In this document: piece by piece, positions 3,414-20,490 of the stretch
Layout of the letters: each line of letters starts with the position of its first letter
Position numbering within the stretch: the stretch's first letter is position 1
Origin: a virus
Length of the DNA stretch: 64,000 bases
Virus record (IMG/VR): IMGVR_UViG_3300044977_000070
Location: 1-64,000 of that record
Direction: 5' to 3' (one strand)
The notes under the pieces: generated by a model
Database searches by the model: none
Told to the model about the DNA's origin: nothing
What the model saw: the letters and a program-made list of their open reading frames with translations, nothing else
Made by a program: the position numbers and the translations under genes

Positions 3414-5131
3414 CTAAAGAACCGTGGCCGCCGGTAGAATCCTATCAGGAGGTATTCGCAGATCGGCAATGGCGGTTAATGAAAATGCGACAAACGTCGA
3501 ATGGCGTCGCAGCCGCAAAGATCTTTTATAGGACAAGGCCTCTTCAGTTCATAAAGCATTGGGGTGTCTGCGTCGAACCCCGGGATGCGTCAGGCGGCAT
3601 TAATGCGCTTACCCTTCTCCCGTTCATTCCGTTCAGAAAACAAGTTGAGTTGATAAAATTCCTCCATGCGCTCGTCCAGGAAAGGGAGAGCGGTTTGGTG
3701 GAAAAGTCGCGTGATATGGGAGCTACATGGACCTGCGTTCTTTTTGCGGTTTGGCTTTGGTGTTTTTGGCCAGGCGCTGTCATCGGCTTTGGATCGCGTG
3801 GTTCGGACGAGGTTGATCAGATTGGTAATCCGAACTCGATCATTGAAAAGGTGCGTATTGCGATTCGTGCAATACCTGAAGAGTTGTTACCGATAGGATT
3901 CGACCTGAAATACCACATGCCGTTCATGCGCATTATCAACCCGGAAACGAACGCCATGATAAATGGCGACGTGGGCGACAACATTGGACGAGGCGGCCGC
4001 TCATTAGTTTATTTCAAGGACGAGAGTGCCCACTACGTTCACCCCGAGCTCGTTGAGGCGGCATTGTCGGAGAACGCGGCGATACAGGTCGATTTATCTT
4101 CGGTGCATGGCATTGGGACGGTCTTCCATAGACGCAGAGAGGCGGGCGTCGAATGGGAGCCTAATGCTGAATTGCCCAAAGGACGTACACGTGTATTCGT
4201 CCTTGATTGGCGCGATCACCCCGGCAAGACGCAGGAATGGTACGATACCAGACGACAGAAGTTCGAGGATGAGGGGCTATTACACATATTCGCGCAAGAG
4301 GTCGATCGTGATTACTCCGCTTCCATGGAAGGTGTTATCATCCCGGCCCAATGGGTTAAAGCCGCCATTGATGCCCATATCAGAATCGGTCTCAAGGATG
4401 ACGGTTTGTGGGGAGCAGGCCTCGATGTGGCTGACGAGGGCGGGGATACTAATGCGATTACTATACGAAAAGGAATTATCTGCAAGGAAGTCGGGGAATG
4501 GGGTGCGAGAGACCCAGGAGTGACGACAAGGAAAGTCATTGCGGCTGTTCAAGATATACTCCCGTTGGAGTTGCAATACGATTGCGTTGGTATTGGCGTT
4601 GCCGTCAAATCAGAGGTTAATCGTCTTTTGGACGAAAAGCTTATTCCAAAGAAACTCCGCCTCGTGCCATGGAACGCCGCCGCCTCGCCGCTGTGGAAGG
4701 ATAAGCGGGTTGTTGAGCATGATAACAGTTCCCCTCTCAATGAAGATTTCTATGAGAATCTCAAGGCACAGGCCTGGTGGCAGGTAAAACTGAAGTTTCA
4801 GAATACATGGCGCGTGTTCAATGATCCTGAATACAAGTCGGGTTGGAAGGCGGAGGATTTGATTTCCCTAGACTCCAAATCCATTGGTCCTGTAATGCAT
4901 AAGTTGGTTAAGGAATTGTCGCAGCCGGTATTCACGCAATCGAAGAAACTTAAATTATTGGTAGACAAGAAACCACAGGGCGCCAAATCCCCTAACCTCG
5001 CGGACTCGTTCGTCATGGCGTTTTGGCCGGCTCAGGAAAAGCGGCCGCTCGTCGTATCGTCAAATACGGTGCAACGGGCCATGCTCCCCAATAAGTATTC
5101 TCTCAACCGCGCTATGATGGGTAGGAGATAG
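3401..5131 (+). CDS. terL: terminase large subunit
   Basis: 576 aa. ATPase-like KSRDMGATW segment, GGRSLVYFKDESAH, and a nuclease-half pattern (LDVADEGGDTNAI). Size and position are typical for TerL. Confidence 0.88.
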   Translation: MLDVTKEPWPPVESYQEVFADRQWRLMKMRQTSNGVAAAKIFYRTRPLQFIKHWGVCVEPRDASGGINALTLLPFIPFRKQVELIKFLHALVQERESGLVEKSRDMGATWTCVLFAVWLWCFWPGAVIGFGSRGSDEVDQIGNPNSIIEKVRIAIRAIPEELLPIGFDLKYHMPFMRIINPETNAMINGDVGDNIGRGGRSLVYFKDESAHYVHPELVEAALSENAAIQVDLSSVHGIGTVFHRRREAGVEWEPNAELPKGRTRVFVLDWRDHPGKTQEWYDTRRQKFEDEGLLHIFAQEVDRDYSASMEGVIIPAQWVKAAIDAHIRIGLKDDGLWGAGLDVADEGGDTNAITIRKGIICKEVGEWGARDPGVTTRKVIAAVQDILPLELQYDCVGIGVAVKSEVNRLLDEKLIPKKLRLVPWNAAASPLWKDKRVVEHDNSSPLNEDFYENLKAQAWWQVKLKFQNTWRVFNDPEYKSGWKAEDLISLDSKSIGPVMHKLVKELSQPVFTQSKKLKLLVDKKPQGAKSPNLADSFVMAFWPAQEKRPLVVSSNTVQRAMLPNKYSLNRAMMGRR

Positions 5132-5134
5132 ACA

Positions 5135-5404
5135 ATGGCAAACATAGTCAACCCCGTCGTGAAGCCTACCAAGGAAGGGGCTGTCGATCGTGCAACGGCC
5201 GAGGCAGCAAATCCTTCCGGGGGTGGTCCTGTCACCGAGAGCACGGTGGGGTGCTATATCCAAGGCGTGGATAAGCGCACAAATACGACGTTTACCCGCG
5301 CGTTCGCCAATCTCGCTGCTATGCAGCAATGGCTGGCGACCGACCCTAGCGCCGCCAATTATGATTTCGCATCGGGCGTCGTTGGCCCCACCAAGGGCTT
5401 TTAA
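5135..5404 (+). CDS. hypothetical protein
   Basis: 89-aa ORF directly after terL. Confidence 0.45.
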   Translation: MANIVNPVVKPTKEGAVDRATAEAANPSGGGPVTESTVGCYIQGVDKRTNTTFTRAFANLAAMQQWLATDPSAANYDFASGVVGPTKGF

Positions 5405-5437
5405 CGGGTAAAATAACAGCGGTGTAGCGTGGTAAAC

Positions 5438-5464
5438 GCCCCTCCCCCTATCCTGGGGAGGGGC
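5438..5464 (+). terminator. GC-rich hairpin
   Basis: GCCCCTCCCC (5438-5447), a 7-nt loop, then GGGGAGGGGC (5455-5464). There is no clear T-run. Confidence 0.35.
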
Positions 5465-5494
5465 CATCCCCGTACCGCAACGTAGGAGGCTTCA

Positions 5495-6493
5495 ATGGAT
5501 GTGGCATTTGTTGGGCGTCGAGGGGGGCGGGGTAGCGATCGGGCAGGGTCCCGGGACCTCGCTATGGATAGCAATGAGGAAATGGCTTTCGGTGAAAAGG
5601 AAACCGAAGATGCGTTTAGTCGCAAGGCGCGAAGCGCGCTGCGCAAAAAAAGAGAGATAGCGCGTGGCGAACGATCTAGCGGCGCATCCAATAAAGCCAA
5701 TATGACCCCGGAGGAAGAGGACGCTGAGTTGGATCGTTTGTATGGCCCAATCGAAGAGGAAGAAGGCAAAGACAGTCTTGGCGGGCAGTTGCAGGAGTTG
5801 GAAGACCAACTCAAGGCCGGACAGATTACGCAGAAGCAATATGACCGCTATATTATGAAGTTGGAAAATCCTGACGCCGTGATTAATTATGAGCCGTCTG
5901 GATATGAGAAGTCGGGCACCGAGGCGCGCGAGACGGCCGCCGGGCATGATGAGGACTACGACGAGCACGAAACTGAGGAAGAGATTGACAAAGAGTTCGC
6001 AGACGACGAGATAGACGACGACAAAGAAGACGAGGCGATGGACGCCGAGGACGACTACGATATGGTCTCGCGGGGTCTTGACGAGCCCAACTTTACCGGG
6101 CGTCGAGGCGCGCGTGGCACCATAAAAGCCCCTGCCCGCGATATGGACGATTACTCGGTGGAGACGAAGAAGAACGAACTTAAGCAAATGTTGCGCGACG
6201 GCATTATCAGTCCGCAGGAACATGATAAGCAGTTGCGCGAGATTCTCCCTTCTATCAACTTCAAATCCGCTGGCGCTGTACGGGCGAAGGATGTTGAGGG
6301 CAGACGCGGCGGACGAATCTCCGACAGGGCGGGCTCGCGCGATATGGCAAGCGACCCCCCTGTCTCCGAGGCGCAGCGTCGTGCCATGTTCGCTGCAAAG
6401 TCAGGTAAATCCAATATTGGCATTCCGCAATCTGTCGGCAAAGAGTTTGCCGAGGCGGATCCAGGTGGACACCTCCCCGAGAAGAAAGAATAA
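5495..6493 (+). CDS. acidic head-associated protein with internal GRRGGRxSDRAGSRD repeats
   Basis: 332 aa, preceded by an AGGAGG ribosome-binding site. Very rich in D/E. The 15-aa motif occurs at aa 7-21 and aa 269-283. The C-terminal SEAQRRAMFAAKSGKSNIGIP resembles DUF3008-type motifs. Confidence 0.6.
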   Translation: MDVAFVGRRGGRGSDRAGSRDLAMDSNEEMAFGEKETEDAFSRKARSALRKKREIARGERSSGASNKANMTPEEEDAELDRLYGPIEEEEGKDSLGGQLQELEDQLKAGQITQKQYDRYIMKLENPDAVINYEPSGYEKSGTEARETAAGHDEDYDEHETEEEIDKEFADDEIDDDKEDEAMDAEDDYDMVSRGLDEPNFTGRRGARGTIKAPARDMDDYSVETKKNELKQMLRDGIISPQEHDKQLREILPSINFKSAGAVRAKDVEGRRGGRISDRAGSRDMASDPPVSEAQRRAMFAAKSGKSNIGIPQSVGKEFAEADPGGHLPEKKE

Positions 6494-6496
6494 CAA

Positions 6497-7150
6497 GTGT
6501 TCACCCTTCTATGCGGGATGCAATCGGAGGCCGAGGTCTTCCAGGGCCATGACGGCTTGCAAGTTCTTTATGGAACATCCCGCAATAACCTCGCGTCCCT
6601 CATTCCCAAGGATTGCATGGGGCTGATTAGCGCTGGCACGGTCGGTGGGTTGTTGCCGTCATTAGGGCGTGGAGATCTCGTTCTTGGCAATGTGGTGGTT
6701 GTTGCGGATGGAACAAAGTTCCTAACGGATGGCATTTGGTTGTCTACCGTGGCTGCCAAAGTCGCTCATATGGATCACCACTTTAGTCGCATTTATTCGG
6801 ATACGAATACCATAACCCAGACGCCGGTCCAGAGAACAGCGCTCGCCCAATTGCATGATGTGGCGGTAGATGACGAGGAGAGTTGGGCGGTTGCCCGAAC
6901 GGCAAGGGCCTTGGGATTGCCTTTCATTGTCGTGCGGGCCGTGTCCGATCAATGGGATCAGACGTTGCTTCCGGATGATTCCAAGGCCGTGAATCCGGAC
7001 GGCACAGTCAATGTCGGTCCCCTGATTCCGGACTTCTTTGAGAACCCGGTGGAGGCCTTGTTGGAGGCAGAGGGATTGCAGCAGGCGTTGAATACCCTGC
7101 GTACGGCATTCTCTTTGTTGGGTCCGACATTCAGCTTCCCAGGAAAATAG
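6497..7150 (+). CDS. PNP_UDP_1 family nucleosidase/phosphorylase (MTA/SAH nucleosidase- or HpnG-like)
   Basis: 217 aa with a GTG start. ISAGTVGGLLPSLGRGDLVLG and AVDDEESWAVARTARALGLPFIVVRAVSD match the SAGxxGGL and (E/D)xE...PFxxxRxxSD blocks of MtnN/HpnG-type enzymes. Confidence 0.7.
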   Translation: MFTLLCGMQSEAEVFQGHDGLQVLYGTSRNNLASLIPKDCMGLISAGTVGGLLPSLGRGDLVLGNVVVVADGTKFLTDGIWLSTVAAKVAHMDHHFSRIYSDTNTITQTPVQRTALAQLHDVAVDDEESWAVARTARALGLPFIVVRAVSDQWDQTLLPDDSKAVNPDGTVNVGPLIPDFFENPVEALLEAEGLQQALNTLRTAFSLLGPTFSFPGK

Positions 7151-7158
7151 GCACGTTC

Positions 7159-10098
7159 ATGGGCAAAGTCGTACGGATGCGCCTCCGCAATAAACCTGTG
7201 GAGCAGGAAAACGCGCCTAAAAAGAAGAAGGTCGAGCGCCGCAAGCTTAACCTTCACAATATGATGATGGCGGTAGCGCGCGCGAGACAGAAGGAAGTCC
7301 CGCGCGTAATGGTCAATCCGTTCCGTCTCCCCCAGTTCCCTCCCAGCTCCACGCCAAAAAAAGACACGGGGATGGCGCTGGACGATGTCTTCGGGGATAA
7401 CAACGGCAATGATTGGTCATGGGCAGGGAGCGCCTTTCTCAACGCTGTCGGATCTGTTTATCAGGAAGGGCTCGTTTTCCCGGGTTATACCTATCTCGCC
7501 GAGCTCGCCCAGCGTGCGGAATATAGGGTCATTGCCGAGACGATTGCCGAGGAATCTACCCGTAAGTGGATTAAGGTTACGTCTAATGACGACGAGGACG
7601 ATAAGACGGAACGCGTCAAGGAGCTGGGCGACGCATTGGATAAGTTGAATGTCCGCGATTGCTTCCGCAAGGCATCTGAACTTGATAACCTGTTTGGACG
7701 CGCCCACCTTTATGTCGATATCCGCGATCCCGCGACGGACGAGGGCAAGAACACGACGGTTATTGACAGGGCCGAGTTGCAGACGCCGATCGGCAACGGC
7801 AAGGACGATATTTCCAAGTCAAAGATCGGCAAGGGGTTTTTCAAGCGATTGAAGGCAGTCGAACCCGTCTGGACATATCCTACTAACTATAATGCGTCCG
7901 ATCCGTTGACGACGGATTGGTACGAGCCGGATATGTGGTACGTCATGGGCAAGCAGATTCATAAGACGCGTCTGCTCAAGTTCGTATCGAGGGAAGTTCC
8001 CGATATGTTGAAGCCCGCCTATGCGTTCGGCGGGTTGTCCATGTCGCAACTTGCGAAGCCCTATATCGACAATTGGCTGAGGATCAGACAATCGGTCGCC
8101 GACATTATCCAGGCGTTCTCGATTTTCGTGCTTTCGACGGACATGTCTGAGGTTATGTCCGAGAGTAGCGACGCCTTGTTCCATCGCATCGACCTTTTCA
8201 ATGCATTGCGTAACAACAAGGGACTTATGGTTCTCAATAAGGATACCGAAGAGTTTCTAAACGTCGCCGCGCCATTGGGCACATTGGATTCGTTGCAGGC
8301 GCAGAGTCAGGAACATATGGCGGCCGTCAGCCGCATTCCGCTCGTCAAGTTGCTGGGAATTCAACCTGCGGGATTGAACGCCTCGTCCGAGGGCGAGATT
8401 CGAACCTTTTATGATCATATCCATGCTTATCAAGAACGGTTCTTCCGTCCTAACCTGACTGTCATTATCGATATGACCATGCTGTCCTTGTGGGGCGAGG
8501 TAGACGACACTATAAACTTCGAGTTTGTGAAGCTTTGGGAACTTGACGAGGCGGCCGAGGCAACGAAGCGCAAGACCGACGCAGATACGGACATCGAGTT
8601 GATCCAGGCTGGCGTCATATCGCCCGAGGAAGCGCGCAAGCGGATCGCCAATGATCCGAATACGCCTTATCAGTCATTGGACGTGCATGATTTGCCCGAA
8701 CCTCCTGACCAGGGTATGGAAGGGGGAGAAGGCGGCCCCGAGGATCCGGATGGCAATGGCGGCGGACAGGAAGGACAAGAGAATGTTGAAGAAGAGGGAA
8801 CCCAAGGCGGCGGTCCCCCTGCTAGTGCTAGACCCCCAGAACGATCAGCTGATGGTAGTAGACGACGGGGGTTTCGAGATATGGGATCTGGCGTCGAAAA
8901 CGTGGAAGAAGACCCAGCCGAACTTGACGAACACGCCCCGCTAGAGGGGGAAGAGGGGGAAGAGGGGGAATTCGCTTGGCCGCCTGAAGAATACGTAGAC
9001 GAGGGGTGGGAGGAGGAGGGTGACGATTACCTTCCCGAACCTTCGATGGAAGAGGACTTCGAGGATACGCACCAGCCCGAGGCCGAGACAGAACCGCACG
9101 CTGGATTGCGTGGCGAATATGAGCGTCAACGTGTTCCGGGCGGTACTGCCTCGACTGAGAGTGATACCGGTTGGGAAGGTCAAGCCTATATGGAAGACCC
9201 CACCCGTGGCAGTAACGAGGCCGAGCTGAGATCCAGAAGTCGCTACAACAATGGGCAGGGCAGGAATCGTCCAAAGTTCTATACGAATGAATACAATGCC
9301 CTGGTCAATTTGAACGAGGAGGACGACAAGCGCGTCGCCTCCTTGCGAGACCGTGGGTATATGGCCCCACGCGAGCGGCGTGCGCGCCCCGCAATAGACG
9401 AGAATACATCCTCCCTGCAACGCGCCAAGGGCGAGACCGGTGATCCTGGGGGCGCTAGGGGCTCTTTCGTCAAAGGCACTATGCCTATGGGCTGGCCTAA
9501 GAAGAAAAGCATCCCACGTCGAAAATTGAACTTGGACGAATTTGAAGAAGGCAAACATCCACGTGATCAGGTAGGCAAGTTTTCTAAGACCGTGACTTCA
9601 GGGAACAGAAGCCCCCTTGAGACGAAAGCCGAACAACGTGGGAGAACAGGCAGACCTCTTAGACGTAAGAAGCTTCCTATTGGAACTGAATCGCATATAA
9701 TGAAACGTGCCGAGGAGCGGTTGACGGAAGGTCCGAGGGTTGTTGGGTCCAAACAGGAACAAGAAGCGACTTTGCGCAAGAATTGGGAAGAGTATGGTCC
9801 AGAGCGGGACTACGATTTTGATAATTTCAAAACATGGGATAAGGAAGCCGAGATTTGGAATAAGGAACATCCAGGTAATCCTATTCCAGAAAATTATGTA
9901 TTTGGAAGTAACCGTGAGTTTGAGGAATTTTTCGATAAGAAGCATTTGGAAGGGAAAAAGAAACCCTATCCCGGCGCTAAAAAGGCTAATGAGTATTTTT
10001 CCGATGATCCCGAAACTTGGAAGTATACGGCGTTTACTTCAGCGCGGCAGATGCGTAATGCAAATGAGGAAATGGTACCTAGAGAAAAAATCCAATAG
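7159..10098 (+). CDS. portal protein (DUF1073-like) with a charged C-terminal extension of about 470 aa
   Basis: 979 aa. The first 500 aa or so show portal-like blocks (WYEPDMWYVMGKQIHKTRLL, GGLSMSQLAKPYIDNWLRIRQS). From about nt 8690 the sequence is low-complexity and rich in E/D/G/R/K. Confidence 0.8.
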   Translation: MGKVVRMRLRNKPVEQENAPKKKKVERRKLNLHNMMMAVARARQKEVPRVMVNPFRLPQFPPSSTPKKDTGMALDDVFGDNNGNDWSWAGSAFLNAVGSVYQEGLVFPGYTYLAELAQRAEYRVIAETIAEESTRKWIKVTSNDDEDDKTERVKELGDALDKLNVRDCFRKASELDNLFGRAHLYVDIRDPATDEGKNTTVIDRAELQTPIGNGKDDISKSKIGKGFFKRLKAVEPVWTYPTNYNASDPLTTDWYEPDMWYVMGKQIHKTRLLKFVSREVPDMLKPAYAFGGLSMSQLAKPYIDNWLRIRQSVADIIQAFSIFVLSTDMSEVMSESSDALFHRIDLFNALRNNKGLMVLNKDTEEFLNVAAPLGTLDSLQAQSQEHMAAVSRIPLVKLLGIQPAGLNASSEGEIRTFYDHIHAYQERFFRPNLTVIIDMTMLSLWGEVDDTINFEFVKLWELDEAAEATKRKTDADTDIELIQAGVISPEEARKRIANDPNTPYQSLDVHDLPEPPDQGMEGGEGGPEDPDGNGGGQEGQENVEEEGTQGGGPPASARPPERSADGSRRRGFRDMGSGVENVEEDPAELDEHAPLEGEEGEEGEFAWPPEEYVDEGWEEEGDDYLPEPSMEEDFEDTHQPEAETEPHAGLRGEYERQRVPGGTASTESDTGWEGQAYMEDPTRGSNEAELRSRSRYNNGQGRNRPKFYTNEYNALVNLNEEDDKRVASLRDRGYMAPRERRARPAIDENTSSLQRAKGETGDPGGARGSFVKGTMPMGWPKKKSIPRRKLNLDEFEEGKHPRDQVGKFSKTVTSGNRSPLETKAEQRGRTGRPLRRKKLPIGTESHIMKRAEERLTEGPRVVGSKQEQEATLRKNWEEYGPERDYDFDNFKTWDKEAEIWNKEHPGNPIPENYVFGSNREFEEFFDKKHLEGKKKPYPGAKKANEYFSDDPETWKYTAFTSARQMRNANEEMVPREKIQ

Positions 10099-13316: not shown

Positions 13317-13469
13317 ATGATCGGAGTTGCGGCCGTGCTCTTGGCGGGCACGGTTTCCGCCGACGCGCAGTATTACCGCCAACCCTATTCCTATCCAGGC
13401 CGGGGCTATTACAGCGGCGGCAGCCACTACAGCGAGCGCTACGGGCAATATTATGCGCCGCGCTATTAA
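13317..13469 (+). CDS. small secreted Tyr-rich peptide (not in the supplied ORF track)
   Basis: Hand translation gives MIGVAAVLLAGTVSADA|QYYRQPYSYPGRGYYSGGSHYSERYGQYYAPRY*, 50 aa. The signal peptide plus Y-rich mature part resemble 11538..11792. Confidence 0.5.
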   Translation: MIGVAAVLLAGTVSADAQYYRQPYSYPGRGYYSGGSHYSERYGQYYAPRY

Positions 13470-13490
13470 GTTGCTTCCCTACGGGGCCAA

Positions 13491-14276
13491 TTGGTGAAAG
13501 AAAAGATTTTAGCGGCGTGTCACCCGAACTGTGGGGTGGAGGCCGCCTATAGGAAGGCGATACTCAAGCTCGTTGAAGAGATGGGAAAGTCTTTCTCTTA
13601 TTGGCTGGTTAAGGCCTATAAGAACAGTGACCCCGAGATGGCGCAGGACGCCAATGCCGCTCAGGCAATGAAGGCCGCAATCAACAAATTAATCAAGCGG
13701 TGGCAGAAGCGTTTCGACTATGCCGCCCCGCGCCTCGCCAAATGGTTTGCACTGAAGGCGTCGAAACGGTCCGATAGCGCCCTTATGCATATTTTGCGCA
13801 AGGGCGGAATCTCGGTAAAGTTTAAACCGACCAAGGCGCAAAAGGAAATTCTGCAAGCGACGGTCGAGGAGAACGTCGCCCTTATCAAATCCATTCCGCA
13901 GAAGTATCACCATGCCGTCGTCCCGCTCGTTATGAATAGCGTGAGACAGGGCCGTGATCTCAGTGAATTGACAAAGGAGCTGCAAAAGCAGTTTAAGGTC
14001 ACGAAGAATCGTGCCGTCCTGATAGCGCGGGATCAAAACAATAAGGCGACAGGCGCGCTTACCCGCGCAAGGCAAATGGAAATGGGTATCAAGGAGGCGG
14101 TATGGCTGCACTCTGGCGGTGGACGCAAGCCCCGTCCTACCCATGTAAAGAATAGCGGCAAGCGCTATGACGTGAACAAGGGTTGGTACGATCCCCACGA
14201 AGGGAAGCGAATACACCCTGGTGAGCTTATCAACTGCCGCTGTGTATCGAAGTCCGTCATTCCGGGATTCATGTGA
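13491..14276 (+). CDS. head morphogenesis protein, Mu F / SPP1 gp7 family
   Basis: 261 aa. The C-terminus (RIHPGELINCRCV) matches the MuF hallmark (H-P-x-C-R-C), and ARDQNNKATG lies upstream of it. It sits after the portal gene. Confidence 0.82.
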   Translation: MVKEKILAACHPNCGVEAAYRKAILKLVEEMGKSFSYWLVKAYKNSDPEMAQDANAAQAMKAAINKLIKRWQKRFDYAAPRLAKWFALKASKRSDSALMHILRKGGISVKFKPTKAQKEILQATVEENVALIKSIPQKYHHAVVPLVMNSVRQGRDLSELTKELQKQFKVTKNRAVLIARDQNNKATGALTRARQMEMGIKEAVWLHSGGGRKPRPTHVKNSGKRYDVNKGWYDPHEGKRIHPGELINCRCVSKSVIPGFM

Positions 14277-14288
14277 GGAGTACATATC

Positions 14289-14534
14289 ATGATCGGCTTA
14301 GCAATCAACATCCTATGGTTCTTGATTGGACTTATTGTTCTTCTCGGCATAGTTTGGCTGGCGTTGTATGTCGTCAAGTTATTCATGCCGATTCCTGACA
14401 AGATCGAACTAGCGATTTGGTGCATCATCTTTATCCTGTGCTTGATCGGCGCTCTGACTCTTCTATCGGGAAGTGGCGGCAATGTTCACTTCCCGCGTCT
14501 TGGCAGCGTCCCGGTAATAGTGCGTCTTGCATAA
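14289..14534 (+). CDS. small membrane protein (2-3 TM helices)
   Basis: 81 aa, strongly hydrophobic (ILWFLIGLIVLLGIVWLALYVV...). Confidence 0.45.
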   Translation: MIGLAINILWFLIGLIVLLGIVWLALYVVKLFMPIPDKIELAIWCIIFILCLIGALTLLSGSGGNVHFPRLGSVPVIVRLA

Positions 14535-16832
14535 ATGTCCAAGGTTGCTGCTCACGTGCCGCTGCGCAAGGCAGCGAGCCCTCAGCCTGTTATCAAGAAC
14601 AAGATACACAGGCCGATCCCTCACCGTCCCCACGCCACGTTGCCGGGCGGTAAACCGAAGAATCCCAACATCCAACGCCCCGAGAAAATGGAACGCCCTG
14701 CCATAGACACGGCTGTTGCTGCGACGATTACGCCGCCGCCCTCGTCTGTTCCCACGGCTGGGAAGAAACCCGTCACCAAGGAAAAGCCGCATGAGCCCGC
14801 GCCGTCCTTGGGCAGGGATAGGGAACCCGAGGCGGCGGGACTCATTCTGCGGGCCTGGGCGACAGGGAATGCGTTGTGGATCAAGCGTGGAAAGAAGGGC
14901 GATCATGTCGGCGAGTGGGCATTCCCGGGTGGAGGCATTGAAAAAGGGGAGTCGCCAGTTATTGCAGCTATTAGAGAAACTCGAGAGGAAACAGGATTTA
15001 TCAATGAGTCAGAGGAAACGCCTTCTCATATTGGAACGTTCAATACTGGGGATGTTGAGTTTGCCCTTTATGAGTTGAAGGTAAACAACGAGTTCATTCC
15101 GACATTGAATGACGAGAGTGACGCCTGGGCGTGGGCGCCGTTGGATGATCCGCCGCAACCTGTCCACACTGGGTTGAAGAAAAGCAGCGTAACTGGGGAT
15201 TCTTTTTTCAAGGACGGGCGGAAGTATTCAGACGAGGATGAATATGATTCCGAAAGGGAACAGGAAGAGATAAGAGCAAAGAAGGCTCAGGACAAGCAAC
15301 TCGCCGACGACGTGGAAAGCACAGGCCCCGCCTCCCCCGAGAAGATCGAGGCTATCAAGCGTGCCGTCTATCAGGCAGCAAACGAGCTCGGATTCCCTAC
15401 CGATAAGATCAAGATTGTCAATAAGTCGGAGCCGCACGATATCGCAACTATGTTCGACCCACGCGGCACGAAGGCGAGTTATGATTTCGATACGGGCGAA
15501 ATGATTTTTTATCCGCCCGGGTTGAAGAGCGACAGGATGGAATATATCCTGCCGATCTTCCGGCATGAATTAATGCATATGAAGTTCGAACAGTTCCTTA
15601 AAAGCCTGAAGACGAATCCGCATTTGCAGCGGTCATACGAAAGTATTATTAGCGATCCTTACAGTTTGTATGTAGGCGCGCGGGATGTTTCCAACTATGC
15701 GGACGTGTCATTCGAGCGGTATCGTCATGGCGACTCCCAACTCAAGGACGCGTTGCACGAGACGCTTGCCGACATGGTGAAATACGATCGCAAGAATACG
15801 CGCAGCAAGCCGCTCAATGCGCTTTATGCTCTCGTCGAGGAGAGTTCGAAAATGAATAAGCAGGCCAAGGACGCAAATATTCTTTTTGAGAAGGGCGGCT
15901 TTTATATTATTGGAACACCACAAGGTGGTTATGAGGTATATCGTAATGAGGGAGTTGCCGCCGTACGGGTGGCGCAGATTGGAAAAGGCTTCCCCAATGC
16001 GTTTGAACGAGCAAAACAAGAAATAGACCGTCGTGCAAAAGACAGTGCTATGGACTCTGATTACGAGGAAGTCGCGCACAACGGACGCCTCCCACGACTG
16101 GAGGCGCGAACATTCGGCTCGTTTGTTGGTCCTGTTATCAAGCCAAATCGCGGATCGTTCAAGGCAACGCCCGAGACGTTACATAGGGGACAGTTTGCTG
16201 GCGACGCAAGACTTTACTATCGCAAGAAGGTCGAGTCTGTCATTGCCATGGATAAGTCGCGTGTCGTACTGATCCGTGCAGAAGGCAATTTGAGATTCGC
16301 TCGCCTCGCCCTTGACGAAAGCATGCGGTCATACGACTTCGACGGTCGTTTGCATGTAAAACTTGCGAATATTAGTAAGGCGACAGTTAATCCATATGTC
16401 GGCAATGAAATCCCCGACTTTAAGAAACTTGGCTTGGATCCGAACAAGATTTATTACCTCTATCGTGATCCCGAAGAGTTGGAGAAGGGCGCCGCTACAT
16501 TCAACCTGCTTCCCTTGCTTTCAGAACACCAACCTGTTACGGCTAATACCCATGATCAGAAGCTTGTCGTGGGGTCGACGGGAACAGACGCAAATTTCGA
16601 AGCGCCGTTTTTGCGTAACAGTCTCGTCATTTGGCCGGAGGCGGATATCAAGAAGATCGAGAAGAACGATAAGCGGCAAATTTCGTGTGGGTATCGATAC
16701 ACGCCCGACATGACGCCGGGGGTTTCCCCTGCGGGCGAACGATACGATGGGGTTATGCGGGATATAGTTGGTAACCATGTCGCTCTCGTTTCAGAGGGAC
16801 GCGCCGGCAAAGACGTAACGATTGAGCAGTAA
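14535..16832 (+). CDS. Nudix hydrolase + HExxH region + DUF2213-like (prohead protease/scaffold-type) fusion protein
   Basis: 765 aa. Complete Nudix box GGIEKGESPVIAAIRETREETGF (nt 14931-14999). HELMH at nt 15564-15578. The C-terminal 200 aa or so (NPYVGNEIPD ... LLSEHQPV ... GNHVALVSEGRAG) resemble DUF2213 phage proteins. Confidence 0.72.
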   Translation: MSKVAAHVPLRKAASPQPVIKNKIHRPIPHRPHATLPGGKPKNPNIQRPEKMERPAIDTAVAATITPPPSSVPTAGKKPVTKEKPHEPAPSLGRDREPEAAGLILRAWATGNALWIKRGKKGDHVGEWAFPGGGIEKGESPVIAAIRETREETGFINESEETPSHIGTFNTGDVEFALYELKVNNEFIPTLNDESDAWAWAPLDDPPQPVHTGLKKSSVTGDSFFKDGRKYSDEDEYDSEREQEEIRAKKAQDKQLADDVESTGPASPEKIEAIKRAVYQAANELGFPTDKIKIVNKSEPHDIATMFDPRGTKASYDFDTGEMIFYPPGLKSDRMEYILPIFRHELMHMKFEQFLKSLKTNPHLQRSYESIISDPYSLYVGARDVSNYADVSFERYRHGDSQLKDALHETLADMVKYDRKNTRSKPLNALYALVEESSKMNKQAKDANILFEKGGFYIIGTPQGGYEVYRNEGVAAVRVAQIGKGFPNAFERAKQEIDRRAKDSAMDSDYEEVAHNGRLPRLEARTFGSFVGPVIKPNRGSFKATPETLHRGQFAGDARLYYRKKVESVIAMDKSRVVLIRAEGNLRFARLALDESMRSYDFDGRLHVKLANISKATVNPYVGNEIPDFKKLGLDPNKIYYLYRDPEELEKGAATFNLLPLLSEHQPVTANTHDQKLVVGSTGTDANFEAPFLRNSLVIWPEADIKKIEKNDKRQISCGYRYTPDMTPGVSPAGERYDGVMRDIVGNHVALVSEGRAGKDVTIEQ

Positions 16833-16942
16833 ATAAGTTTTATTAAATCATAGAAATATGACTACCAAAAAGTAGTTATATAAACCGCTTGCGTGCGTAG
16901 TGTAACGCCAGCAAATACTCTAACTGAAGAAAGGAGCGTATC

Positions 16943-18310
16943 ATGGCAAAGACCATGACGCGCCAAGCAGCACGTACAATCGCGGCTGTCGTGCCTTTCG
17001 TTAAGGCGAAGCTGGCGCAGGACGAAGCGGTTGATTTCACGAAGTTGCTTGCGGGCGTCAAAGCGGAAACGTTTACCGACCAGAAGCCAAAACTCCTGGA
17101 AGGAATCCGTAAGCTCACCAAAGGCAAGTTGGCACAAGACGCCTCTATTGGCGAACTTGCTGAGATGCTCGACCTTCTCGATTCTCATGGCGTCGAGCAG
17201 GACGAGGACGTATCAGAGGCGCAGCACGAAGCCATGATGGCAACGGCTCAAGGAAAAGGAGACCGCAAGATGCGAGGACGACATGCTGACGATCGGCGTC
17301 GTCATGCTGATGACCGAAGGCGTGCAGACGATCGCCGGCATGCCGACGACGAGCACGAGGATCACGAGGAGGTGGATCGGACGTCCCAGGAGTTCCATGG
17401 GGGTGGTGGGGAGGATCGTCGCCGAGGCGCTCGTGACCGTCGCGCCGATGACATGAACCAGGGTGAGATTGAGCGTGAGCACCAGCCCTTCCGCGAGGGC
17501 GAGGATATGGGCGAGCCGGACGATTATGACGATCCGACTGAGTTCACCATGAAGCGTCGGGACGCGGCGGACGAGGAAGAGGAAGAGGAGTTCGAGTCCC
17601 CCGGCGAGAAGTTGGAAGACCTGGGTGCCGAGACGGGCGAGGATGATTTCGAGGCTGGGCAGCCCCATGCCGAGGAGACGCGCAGCAACGAGTACGAGTG
17701 GCGCCGCGGCTCAATGAAGGGGCCCGTCACTGACAAGCGTCGGGGAATGGACAGGCGACGCGGCATGGACAAGCGCTATGCGGACGATCGCCGGCATGCG
17801 GATGACAGGCGCAAGGGCATGGACAAGCGTCGGGCCGCCGACAAGCGTGGGCGGGCCATGGACGAACCCCCTCCGTTCAAGGGACGCCCGAATCCCGGGG
17901 GATCGATGGACAAGCGTCGGGCCATGGATCGCCGGGGCCACGCCCAGGACGCTAGGGAAACGGTAACACGCGTCGAAATGGAGGCCGCCATCCAGGCCGC
18001 GGCAAAGGCCGCCACCGCACGTGAGAGGGCGATACGGGACGCAGAACGTCGGGTCCAGCCGTATATCGGCAACGTCAATATGTCATTCGACAGCGCAAAC
18101 GCTGTTTACGAGCATGCGTTGAAGCTGTTGAAGATTGACACCAAGGGGGTGCACCCCTCTGCCTTCCCGACCCTGCTCAAGTATGCCCAGAAGCCAGGCG
18201 CCAACAACTCCAACCCGCGTCCGGCCATGGCGGCTGACTCCATCTCCCGCAACGGGACGCAATCCTTCTTCAACATGTTCCCCGACGCACGGCGGTTGCG
18301 TATCGGTTAA
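16943..18310 (+). CDS. putative scaffolding protein with Arg/Asp tandem repeats
   Basis: 455 aa with an AAGGAG ribosome-binding site. It lies between the DUF2213-like gene and the capsid genes and is highly charged. Confidence 0.5.
   Translation: MAKTMTRQAARTIAAVVPFVKAKLAQDEAVDFTKLLAGVKAETFTDQKPKLLEGIRKLTKGKLAQDASIGELAEMLDLLDSHGVEQDEDVSEAQHEAMMATAQGKGDRKMRGRHADDRRRHADDRRRADDRRHADDEHEDHEEVDRTSQEFHGGGGEDRRRGARDRRADDMNQGEIEREHQPFREGEDMGEPDDYDDPTEFTMKRRDAADEEEEEEFESPGEKLEDLGAETGEDDFEAGQPHAEETRSNEYEWRRGSMKGPVTDKRRGMDRRRGMDKRYADDRRHADDRRKGMDKRRAADKRGRAMDEPPPFKGRPNPGGSMDKRRAMDRRGHAQDARETVTRVEMEAAIQAAAKAATARERAIRDAERRVQPYIGNVNMSFDSANAVYEHALKLLKIDTKGVHPSAFPTLLKYAQKPGANNSNPRPAMAADSISRNGTQSFFNMFPDARRLRIG
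17273..17941 (+). repeat. in-frame short tandem repeats (HADDRR and MDKRR types)
   Basis: RGRHADDRRRHADDRRRADDRRHADD (about 17273-17350) and KRRGMDRRRGMDKRYADDRRHADDRRKGMDKRRAADKRGRAMD...MDKRRAMDRRG (about 17732-17941). Confidence 0.8.
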
Positions 18311-18383
18311 GCGTTCGAGCGGCAAGTGACGGCGCTGGTAGTGTGGCGACGGCATAAGCAAAGACGATAAGGAGAAGTTTTCA

Positions 18384-19355
18384 ATGCCGTTTCCAAACCA
18401 AGTTAATGTGCAACCGGGGCCTGCCGTAGAAGGCGACTTCGCGAGCACAAACCCCCGCTATACGGTTGACGCAGGTCCGGGTGGACTCGTCGCCGGTCCG
18501 GCGGGCGTCACGGTTGGTCGTTTTGCGTGGGTGTCGGATCTGACTATCGACACGGACAACGCGCCGGCTACCGCCAATAACTTCGGCACCGGGATGCCCG
18601 CGGGCTTCGTCCACCGCGAGCAGCAGGGCCTCAACACGACCTATCTTGCCGAGGCAAGCATGGTTGTTCCGCAAGGGTTCCCGATCACGCTATTTAATGG
18701 CGGCGACTTCTGGGTGAAGAACGCCGGCACCACACAAGCGCTCGTCGGCATGTATGCCTATGCGAACTATGCAGATGGTCGCGTGACGTTCGGCGTTAGC
18801 AATCAGGCAAATATTGGTCTGAACTCGATAAACACCGCGTCTGTCACCGGTACCATTGCCGCAGGCTCTATCAACTTCTCCGGATTCATTTCGGGGAACG
18901 TCCTCACCGTTACGGGCTCCGTATCGGGCACGATCGTTGTCGGCGGCACGCTCACGGGCGGCACCGGCATGGCGGCCGGCACCCAGATCATTGGGCAGTT
19001 GTCAGGAACGCCGGGAGGTGTGGGCACGTATGCCCTCAATATCCCGGAGCAGACCGTTAACAATGGATCAAACTCCGTTATTATTACGGAGACGTACGGC
19101 GTCTTGAACGTCACAGCGGTGACGGGAACGGTAGGTGTCGGCGACGTCTTGTCGGGAACGGGGATAACCGTAGGCACTACAATCACGGCGTTGGGCACGG
19201 GTTCGGGAGGTACCGGGACGTATATCGTCAATATCACCCAGACCGTGAGTTCCTCCACTTGGACTGTGGCGACCAACATACAAACCAAGTGGATCGCAAT
19301 GTCCGCAGGCAATGCCGGCGAACTTGTGAAAATAAGTAACGCGGTCTATGCGTAA
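18384..19355 (+). CDS. capsid decoration/cement-like protein carrying two copies of a ~60-aa Gly/Thr-rich domain
   Basis: 323 aa immediately upstream of the major capsid gene. The N-terminus is [24 protein letters not shown]. The two inserted domains are at nt 18870-19061 and 19089-19253. Confidence 0.5.
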
Positions 19356-19389: not shown

Positions 19390-20490
19390 ATGAACCTTCA
19401 AGAAGCAATGTCAGCATGGCAAAGTCATTTGCCGATGCTGCGCGACCGCGGCGTCAACTTTGCCACCGGCGCGCAGCCATCCGCCTACACGCCGGATGAG
19501 TTCCGATACGACGTGAACCTCGCCATGGACACGATCCCGGCGATTATCACGACAGCGAACTCGTCCGTGCCTGCGTTCCTCACTACCATGATGGACCCGC
19601 AGGTATTCAAAATCCTGTTTGCCCCGAATAGGGCCGCGATCATTCTTGGCGAACAGCGCAAGGGCACCTGGTTGGATGAGACCGCCATGTTCCCGACCGT
19701 TGAGCACACGGGCGAGGTGAGCTCATACGGTGACTTCAATGAGAACGGCCGCACCGGCGTCAATACGGTTTGGCCCCAACGGCAGGCGTACCTGTTCCAG
19801 ACAATCAAGGAATACGGGGACCGCGAACTCGAACGTGCGGGCCTCGCCAAGATCAATTGGGTCGGGGAAATCGATATCGCCTCCGCTACCGTGATCAACA
19901 AGTTTACCAACCTTGCCTACTTCTACGGGATTGGGGGCTTGCAAAATTACGGCCTGCTGAACGACCCGACCCTGACCGCGGCTCTTACCCCTGCCGCCAA
20001 GGCGAACGGGGGCACCAAGTGGTTCACGGCGTCGGGCTCGATCAATGCGACGGCAAACGAGGTCTATAACGACATCCAGGCGATGTTCTACCAACTCGTC
20101 CTGCAAACGTCGGGCCTTGTCGAGGCGGACAGCAAACTCGTGCTGGCAATGTCGCCGCAATCGGAAGTCGCTTTGACAGCAACCAATTCGTTCAACGTGA
20201 ACGTATTTGATTTGCTGAAAAAGAACTTCCCAAATATCCGGTTCGAGACGGCAGTGCAATACGGCGTCATCTCGTCCTCGAACCCGCAGGGACAGGCGAC
20301 AGGCAATCTCGTCCAGCTCCTTGCGGAGGATATCGAGGGGCAGGACACGGGGTATTGCGCGTTCAATGAGAAGATGTACGCGCAGCCGATCGTCCGGCAC
20401 CTGTCCAGCTATCGACAGAAGGTCGTGGCGGGAGTTTGGGGAGCCGTGATAAGGCAACCTTTCGCAATCGTCTCCCTTTTGGGGGTCTAA
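19390..20490 (+). CDS. major capsid protein (DUF2184-like)
   Basis: 366 aa. Position (after protease/scaffold) and size fit, and the sequence style recalls DUF2184-type capsid proteins. No search was done. Confidence 0.7.
   Translation: MNLQEAMSAWQSHLPMLRDRGVNFATGAQPSAYTPDEFRYDVNLAMDTIPAIITTANSSVPAFLTTMMDPQVFKILFAPNRAAIILGEQRKGTWLDETAMFPTVEHTGEVSSYGDFNENGRTGVNTVWPQRQAYLFQTIKEYGDRELERAGLAKINWVGEIDIASATVINKFTNLAYFYGIGGLQNYGLLNDPTLTAALTPAAKANGGTKWFTASGSINATANEVYNDIQAMFYQLVLQTSGLVEADSKLVLAMSPQSEVALTATNSFNVNVFDLLKKNFPNIRFETAVQYGVISSSNPQGQATGNLVQLLAEDIEGQDTGYCAFNEKMYAQPIVRHLSSYRQKVVAGVWGAVIRQPFAIVSLLGV

Follow-up and report, generated by a model that had tools for sequence, protein, structure and literature searches.

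Why does a phage join a Nudix hydrolase to a head-assembly protein, and could the fusion carry the enzyme into the head and on to the next host? The question arises from an open reading frame (ORF) at positions 14535-16832 of the window, i.e., the 64,000-nt stretch analyzed here, which covers positions 1 to 64,000 of IMG/VR record IMGVR_UViG_3300044977_000070 and belongs to an uncultured 110-kb contractile-tailed phage. The ORF runs in a single frame without a stop and encodes a 765-aa protein (P0001), a putative cargo-protease polyprotein. It and the other features given with coordinates below lie on the plus strand.

Organization of the ORF and its head operon

The surrounding genes are arranged in the order terminase, portal, MuF, ORF 14535-16832, scaffold, decoration protein and capsid protein. 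The MuF-like head morphogenesis gene (13491-14276) forms the upstream edge of the cargo slot. On the other side, an AT-rich intergenic spacer of 110 nt (16833-16942) ends in a ribosome-binding site, GAAAGGAG, located 6 nt before the ATG of a 455-aa scaffold ORF (16943-18310); no sigma-70 promoter, terminator or repeated late-promoter motif was found in this spacer. A decoration or minor head protein (18384-19355) and the major capsid protein (19390-20490), the presumed substrate of the protease, are encoded further downstream. The original prediction of a single, uninterrupted 765-aa ORF between MuF-like and scaffold-like genes is therefore borne out. The scaffold ORF and the portal extension gave no match in Pfam, PHROG or NCBIfam.

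From the N- to the C-terminus, the product is predicted to contain a Nudix hydrolase, an acidic linker (aa 219-264, 15189-15326, 32% Asp+Glu), a zincin-like metallopeptidase, a domain of about 60 aa, and a DUF2213 prohead serine protease, and the catalytic motifs of the three predicted enzymes appear intact. The small domain (aa 440-503, 15852-16043) was delineated by a homologue search and an AlphaFold2 model with four strands and a helix. It is also encoded on its own, in proteins of about 62 aa, and it matched no family in Pfam, PHROG or NCBIfam. The linker that precedes the protease domain (aa 504-597, 16044-16325) shows conservation with the closest relative only.

The N-terminal region (aa 1-95, 14535-14819) is basic and proline-rich, as had been noted earlier, with 20% Pro and 18% Lys+Arg, and has no family match in Pfam, PHROG or NCBIfam. 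Its true start is uncertain. No Shine-Dalgarno sequence was found upstream of the ATG at 14535, and the start of the closest relative, P0002, aligns with Met52 of the ORF, encoded by the ATG at 14688. The region may be translated only in part.

The missing Shine-Dalgarno sequence could also be taken to mean that two or three separate genes were fused by a sequencing or assembly error, and a database gene call on the identical sequence (P0122, 326 aa) indeed begins at Met440. We regard such an artefact as extremely improbable: all four conserved domains lie in one frame without a stop, and the same N-to-C order occurs in one chain in dozens of independent proteins from metagenomes and cultured phages. 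The frameshift about which the original prediction had been cautious is excluded because these dozens of independent fusions each lie in one frame.

The Nudix domain

Pfam NUDIX (PF00293) matched aa 101-210 (14835-15164) at 61.9 bits, well above its cut-off of 21.1 (E = 8e-17). When the profile was run against the 110-kb genome, this domain scored 65.7 bits and was the only Nudix found. The complete Nudix box that had been read from the letters, G-x5-E-x7-RE-x2-EE-x-G-F, was located in the translation at aa 133-155 (GGIEKGESPVIAAIRETREETGF, exactly nt 14931-14999). Set against the consensus G-x5-E-x7-RE-U-x-EE-x-G-U, GGIEKGESPVIAAIRETREETGF has the catalytic glutamates and a Thr after RE where the consensus has an aliphatic residue. 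The NCBIfam matches of the Nudix part (MutT, RppH, NudE and NudI) all fell far below their cut-offs, and the sequence appears unable to tell which substrate the enzyme prefers. No Macro, ADP-ribosyltransferase or Acb1 domain was found elsewhere in the phage, the Acb1 search having been run without a positive control.

A predicted prohead serine protease at the C-terminus

The C-terminal domain (aa 598-764, 16326-16826) is DUF2213, now called Pa193_gp24 in Pfam. PF09979 matched it with E = 3e-48 and 164.4 bits (cut-off 22) over profile positions 1-165 of 167, and the matching PHROG 2229 is a head maturation protease. Since a search of PDB sequences with the DUF2213 profile retrieved only Pa193 gp24 and no protease, the fold was tested by modeling. 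The AlphaFold2 model (pLDDT 89.3) gave as best Foldseek matches in the PDB the proteases of KSHV, EBV and HCMV together with T4 gp21. The eight best matches, each of them KSHV protease, EBV protease or T4 gp21, had probabilities of 0.75-1.0, the first six 0.96-1.0, and the fold similarity is weak (E-values of 7e-3 to 9e-2, TM-scores of 0.33-0.48). Three residues are invariant in 26-28 sequences and are kept in Pa193 gp24, in the order His-Ser-His: His665 (16527-16529), a candidate catalytic residue, Ser717 (16683-16685), the candidate nucleophile, and His748 (16776-16778), the candidate third member of the triad.

The model and the conserved residues suggest that DUF2213 is a maturation protease with an assemblin/T4 gp21-like fold. 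The original prediction had thus recognized the right domain, and its role can be revised: what was described as a head-assembly domain is itself the predicted maturation protease. The HExxH part, which had been offered as a possible maturation protease, does not fill that role, which falls to the domain with the gp21-like fold and the invariant His/Ser/His. For annotation, this means that DUF2213/Pa193_gp24 proteins are predicted serine proteases, more than scaffolds.

A zincin-like domain of the polyvalent-protein type

The HELMH motif seen in the original prediction is present at aa 344-348 (15564-15578), where about 0.04 HExxH motifs are expected by chance in a protein of 765 aa. His344, Glu345 and His348 are invariant in eight homologous domains, and so is Glu409 in HETLAD (15759-15761), the candidate third zinc ligand, in eight sequences. 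Homologous repeats, an AlphaFold2 model and Foldseek delimit the domain to aa 265-425 (15327-15809). The model (pLDDT 82.5) has the layout of a zincin core, i.e., a helix, three strands, the HExxH helix and the Glu helix, with HExxH on model helix 81-104 and Glu409 on the following helix 149-162. Foldseek placed the minigluzincins selecase and jannalysin at the top of the PDB matches (probability 0.84-1.0, E >= 0.05, TM < 0.5). Among BFVD models, a MuF C-terminal protein came first (E = 6.6e-4), and large polyvalent proteins ranked next. Modeling thus points to a zincin domain of the kind found in polyvalent proteins.

No Pfam family, MPTase-PolyVal included, matched aa 219-590 at E-values up to 10, and no PHROG matched the zincin region. 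We therefore class the domain as one that works like a polyvalent MPTase and forms a separate clade, and leave it outside the Pfam family. A word-based protein search with aa 265-440 gave no match; homologues were collected by an exhaustive HMMER search and scans for DNA patterns. Proteins P0139, P0143 and P0144 contain two or three copies, and proteins of 1067-1940 aa have one copy each. A copy is also found fused to a portal. Portal, MuF or DUF2213 matches adjoin the domain in five of the seven loci L004-L010; in L004 and L007 none of the three was seen within the stretch fetched. The pairing with Nudix recurs, fused in P0020 and as a separate gene directly upstream of DUF2213-scaffold in L006. 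P0098, which has HELEH between Nudix and DUF2213, fails the zincin profile. The zincin domain could set modules free, or it could itself be an effector.

Variable cargo in front of the predicted protease

Among the best 120 database relatives, 84 are Nudix-DUF2213 fusions, as is gp26 of the cultured Burkholderia phage BcepB1A, and comparison thus shows the fusion to be real and recurrent; near-identical DNA was not found in cultured phages. Other relatives have Acb1, an ADP-ribosyltransferase or a ParB-like stretch in the same slot (the last read from the sequence). These domains are known or suspected counter-defence enzymes. In the closest relative, the flanks are 69-82% identical and the cargo is entirely different. 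Many relatives have no N-terminal cargo at all, so this part is dispensable for head assembly.

This dispensability and the high variability of the cargo would also suit N-terminal domains without a role in host conflict, which might form a removable pro-region (restraining the protease or setting its copy number) or be housekeeping enzymes discarded at maturation. We consider this quite unlikely, since a mere spacer would not retain catalytic motifs: the full Nudix box is kept in 75 of the 84 fusions, and HExxH and the Glu are invariant. Moreover, the cargo of relatives includes a known counter-defence enzyme, Acb1.

Proposed head loading and delivery

From the recurrent fusion, the retained Nudix box and the counter-defence enzymes in the same slot, it is reasonable to propose head loading and delivery with the DNA. 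This is the best reading of the locus, and the proposal itself goes back to Iyer et al. (2017, 2022). We infer head loading from the fusion and, by analogy, from the presence of Pa193 gp24 in virions (PMC11456595). For the complete scheme, in which the enzymes of the cargo-protease polyprotein are loaded into the head, freed and injected with the DNA, and the Nudix enzyme acts on a nucleotide immune signal, our confidence is slightly better than even.

In this scheme, the protease domain would assemble inside the procapsid together with the capsid protein and the scaffold encoded by the next ORF, pulling the N-terminal enzymes in. The DUF2213 protease, possibly helped by the zincin, would then cleave the linkers, and the freed enzymes would remain in the head and reach the next host together with the DNA. 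There, the Nudix enzyme would hydrolyze a nucleoside-diphosphate-X compound, most plausibly an immune signal derived from NAD/ADP-ribose or another nucleotide immune signal. Acb1, for which anti-CBASS activity is proven, occupies this slot in relatives, and this makes the substrate of the Nudix domain a concrete and testable question. If the proposal is true, many phages, most of them uncultured, have enzymes in the capsid that could disable nucleotide-based immunity ahead of all phage gene expression, and the prohead protease would be a general loading hook besides MuF and portal.

One observation counts against head loading. The protease domain of ORF 14535-16832 has no covalent scaffold tail, and such a tail would explain recruitment into the procapsid. 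Protease and scaffold have been split: the scaffold part is now the next ORF (16943-18310) and corresponds to the region following DUF2213 in unsplit relatives. The gene order protease-scaffold-capsid is likewise found in L006, L012, L013 and L015. A split-off scaffold occurs in 11 of 23 (large cargo) vs 4 of 61, an association that ignores kinship. In a quick DUF2213 tree with 17 of 118 branches well supported, the split forms are scattered and are twice well-supported sisters of unsplit ones. A scaffold gene of its own with a strong ribosome-binding site would allow many scaffold copies to be made for few copies of the bulky cargo-protease.

The enzymes might instead act late, in the producing cell and without injection, if signal-degrading activities are tied to the prohead protease when and where head assembly triggers nucleotide-signalling immunity. 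Mutations that let phage escape CBASS lie in the prohead protease and the capsid, and the scaffold domain of a prohead protease expressed alone causes CBASS-dependent toxicity (preprint 10.1101/2023.05.21.541620), although the protease in that study may not be of the DUF2213 type. Acb1 in the slot of Nudix and the place of the gene in a late head operon fit this reading too. It nevertheless seems unlikely to us, as a free enzyme expressed late would suffice without fusion, and fusion to a protein enclosed in the procapsid would take the enzyme out of the cytoplasm.

A broader proposal, which we regard as doubtful, is that the slot N-terminal to DUF2213 acts as an exchangeable cassette whose enzymes all destroy nucleotide alarm signals. 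Nudix would then be a counter-defence enzyme that can be interchanged or combined with Acb1, joined to the prohead protease-scaffold, which certain CBASS-type systems sense, and acting either on arrival of the DNA or at the site of assembly.

Comparison with known systems

Head packaging and processing have been predicted for the polyvalent proteins (Iyer, Burroughs, Anand, de Souza and Aravind, 2017, J Bacteriol 199:e00245-17; PMC5512222, Peptidases section). Like them, the ORF 14535-16832 product combines multiple enzyme domains in one chain encoded in a virion module, with a zincin-like metallopeptidase as a hub domain and an assemblin-like peptidase at the C-terminus. It differs in having just two enzymatic cargo domains and a zincin domain without a Pfam match, MPTase-PolyVal included. 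It also lacks the linker motif of the 'HPRDxxGKF' type that is usual in its relatives.

Phage Nudix domains fused to MuF, portal or a capsid-processing serine peptidase have likewise been predicted to be loaded into the head and injected (Iyer et al., 2022, Viruses 14:1977; PMC9503650, section 3.5.2). As in those fusions, Nudix is joined here to a capsid-maturation peptidase in a late operon of a contractile-tailed phage, whereas the zincin and the small domain are additional and the scaffold part has been lost.

In T4, a capsid-targeting sequence brings the internal head proteins and Alt into the head, where gp21 trims them (PMC9503650, Introduction). The predicted logic is the same here, i.e., entry of an enzyme into the prohead, processing by an assemblin-fold protease and injection with the DNA. 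In T4, however, a short N-terminal peptide targets the cargo, whereas in the present protein cargo and protease share one covalent chain.

Pseudomonas phage Pa193 gp24 (PDB 9B40), after which Pfam PF09979 is named, has DUF2213 (profile E = 3e-14) followed by scaffold and shares the invariant His/Ser/His, but carries no N-terminal cargo. Its residues 286-326 were seen beneath the five-fold vertices of the capsid in the virion, and the authors call it a putative scaffolding protein only, not a protease (PMC11456595).

BcepB1A gp26, a head maturation protease (COG3566), has Nudix and then DUF2213, with 33-34% identity per domain, and is placed between a MuF-like gene and the capsid gene. In BcepB1A, protease and scaffold form one frame with the scaffold as nested gene gp25, whereas in the present phage 110 nt separate the two genes and an insertion adds about 370 aa of cargo. 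The plain label 'head maturation protease', given for example to BcepB1A gp26, can conceal enzyme cargo.

Domain organization of the cargo-protease ORF

The window covers the first 64 kb of a phage record that measures 110,027 bp, has direct terminal repeats and was judged complete; all large ORFs lie on the + strand. Tail sheath, baseplate, terminase, portal and capsid genes point to a contractile-tailed phage. No cultured phage has a major capsid protein more than 48% identical to its own, and no near-identical DNA over 13400-18400 was found in cultured phages. A single open frame at 14535-16832 (+) encodes 765 aa between a MuF-like gene (13491-14276, +) and a scaffold-like ORF (16943-18310, +), which is followed by the genes for the decoration protein and the major capsid protein. 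This confirms the single ORF of the original prediction, and the Nudix box (14931-14999) and HELMH motif (15564-15578) lie exactly where it had placed them. Pfam assigns NUDIX to aa 101-210 (E = 8e-17) and DUF2213 to aa 598-764 (E = 3e-48), and the C-terminal part matches the PHROGs family phrog_2229, 'head maturation protease' (E = 2e-85). Residues 440-503 (15852-16043) form a domain of about 60 aa with four strands and a helix, for which no family match was found; elsewhere it makes up small proteins of about 62 aa by itself and is part of one 1437-aa protein.

The sole soft point of the ORF is its N-terminus. The ATG at 14535 lacks a Shine-Dalgarno sequence and is immediately preceded by the stop codon of a hydrophobic 81-aa ORF, and the start of the closest relative matches Met52. 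The 81-aa ORF (14289-14534) is strongly hydrophobic, with two or three likely membrane helices, and shares the frame of the cargo-protease ORF, with one TAA between them. It is an odd gene for a head-assembly operon.

Candidate protease and zincin-like domains

Modeled with AlphaFold2 from 26 sequences, aa 575-765 gave a mean pLDDT of 89.3. The first eight Foldseek matches of this model among solved structures were the maturational proteases of KSHV and EBV and gp21, the capsid assembly protease of T4, with the HCMV protease at rank 12. Probabilities were 0.96-1.0 for the top six; the E-values of the matches were modest (7e-3 to 9e-2) and their TM-scores 0.33-0.48. Throughout the DUF2213 family, the candidate catalytic residues His665, Ser717 and His748 do not vary, and they occur in the His-Ser-His order of assemblin. 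This modeling suggests that DUF2213 is the maturation protease, a role that the original prediction had considered for the HExxH region. The only PDB relative found by sequence search was gp24 of Pseudomonas phage Pa193, which keeps the equivalents of all three residues. Its authors called it a putative scaffolding protein; in the mature capsid, its residues 286-326 lie beneath the five-fold vertices, and the capsid protein is visible from residue 66 onward only (PMC11456595).

The HExxH region (aa 265-425) had no match in Pfam, PHROG or NCBIfam, nor in a word-based search. With an exhaustive HMMER search, the domain (about 150 aa) turned up in two or three copies each in proteins of 557-2210 aa, and pattern scans of viral contigs located it in seven loci. 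Invariant positions are HExxH, the Phe after it, a V-x-x-Y block and the Glu of 'HETLAEM'. In the structural model (pLDDT 82.5), an N-terminal helix leads into three strands, after which come the HExxH helix and, further on, a helix with Glu409; this arrangement matches the zincin core layout of the metallopeptidases in polyvalent proteins (Iyer et al., 2017; PMC5512222). Of the solved structures, the minigluzincins selecase and jannalysin matched best, ahead of anthrax lethal factor; every E-value was weak. Among predicted viral structures, a MuF C-terminal-domain protein ranked best (E = 6.6e-4), and large polyvalent proteins, an N4-like virion RNA polymerase and a crAssphage zincin fusion were also matched. 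Together, these results mark the HExxH region as a genuine zincin-like domain.

Five of the seven loci have the domain in a head module, adjoining a portal, MuF or DUF2213 gene; L004 and L007 showed no such neighbor within the stretch fetched. Locus L006, which has the gene order of the window and head proteins 47-61% identical to its own, carries a 390-aa Nudix-zincin gene, at the end of which a DUF2213-scaffold gene begins. In the relative P0020, Nudix, zincin, DUF2213 and scaffold follow each other in one chain (hhalign probability 97.7). These are two recurrences of the Nudix-zincin pair.

A variable cargo slot before the protease

Comparison of relatives suggests that the region before DUF2213 is a cargo slot. 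A Nudix domain precedes DUF2213 in 84 of the best 120 database relatives, with a full Nudix box in 75, a relaxed one in 6 and none in 3. One such fusion is gp26 of Burkholderia phage BcepB1A (L016, 7935-9671), which has an intact Nudix box at aa 76 but no annotation beyond 'head maturation protease, COG3566'. In Burkholderia phages Bm1 and BCSR129 the Nudix is instead a separate gene between MuF and protease. The 109.9-kb relative L015 likewise encodes its Nudix separately, as a 532-aa protein between MuF and the DUF2213-scaffold gene, together with a homologue of DpdA (PF23859), an enzyme of 7-deazaguanine DNA modification, and a methyltransferase (4132-7999).

Other cargo occupies this position too. 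The DUF2213 protease is also found fused to the anti-CBASS nuclease Acb1 (PF23474, E down to 7e-42), which lies between Nudix and protease in P0092 and P0070 (L013, 7001-9775) and occurs without Nudix in P0088. P0021 carries an ADP-ribosyltransferase, and P0005 a ParB-like stretch, as read from the sequence. In the phage itself, neither a second Nudix nor a Macro or ADP-ribosyltransferase gene was detectable. Because Nudix co-occurs with Acb1, its function is experimentally approachable.

Identity between the window and the closest relative, P0002 on locus L012, is 69% for Nudix, 77% for DUF2213, 82% for the decoration protein and 79% for the capsid protein, whereas everything between Nudix and the pre-protease linker differs. 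Fast exchange of cargo between conserved flanks is typical of host-conflict genes. The cargo of P0002 (L012, 1252-4398) includes a second Nudix, a Cys-rich motif and a stretch that by eye resembles a kinase, none of them present in the window.

Proposed loading and site of action

The domain anatomy and comparative pattern best support a reading in five steps, in which loading, cutting and delivery are all inferred. The protease domain would enter the procapsid together with scaffold and capsid protein and take the attached enzymes along; the protease, and perhaps also the zincin domain, would cut the linkers; the freed enzymes would leave the head with the DNA; and the ejected Nudix domain would hydrolyse a nucleotide-derived compound. 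Comparison with relatives partly supports the original prediction. The chief competing explanation is late action of the enzymes in the cell that produces the phage. According to a preprint, mutations that escape CBASS lie in prohead protease and capsid, and a prohead protease scaffold domain by itself can trigger CBASS-dependent toxicity (10.1101/2023.05.21.541620).

Loading into the head is an already published idea, and Nudix-DUF2213 fusions are common. Phage Nudix proteins fused to MuF, portal and a capsid-processing serine peptidase were described, with packaging and injection called probable (Iyer et al., 2022; PMC9503650), and the cargo-protease fits this description as well as that of polyvalent proteins (Iyer et al., 2017). 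Particular to it are the combination of Nudix, a zincin clade without curated model and the small domain, the lost scaffold part, and the cargo swapped relative to the nearest relative.

Separation of protease and scaffold

In most relatives, DUF2213 continues in one chain into about 300 aa that match the next ORF of the window, and the annotation of BcepB1A places the scaffold gene gp25 within the 3' part of gp26. The cargo-protease stops two residues past the DUF2213 profile; an AT-rich spacer of 110 nt and the scaffold ORF, with a strong ribosome-binding site, follow, and the first residues of this ORF align with the post-DUF2213 segment of unsplit relatives. The same ending was found in 15 of the 84 Nudix-bearing relatives. 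In a quick, poorly resolved tree of DUF2213 domains, split forms are scattered and are twice the well-supported sister of an unsplit form. They are more common when the Nudix-DUF2213 insert exceeds 200 aa (11/23 versus 4/61, raw counts that ignore relatedness). Splitting could plausibly allow many scaffold copies alongside few bulky cargo-protease copies. The middle of the scaffold ORF (17250-18000) contains highly charged short repeats (HADDRRR, GMDKRR), with a local G+C of 0.62-0.69 compared with about 0.5 nearby.

About 430 aa at the C-terminus of the portal (7159-10098, 979 aa) form an extension (about 8800-10098) without a Pfam or PHROG match. This tail may be a second cargo slot, since the portal of L009 is fused to the same zincin-like domain, the one such fusion among the loci.
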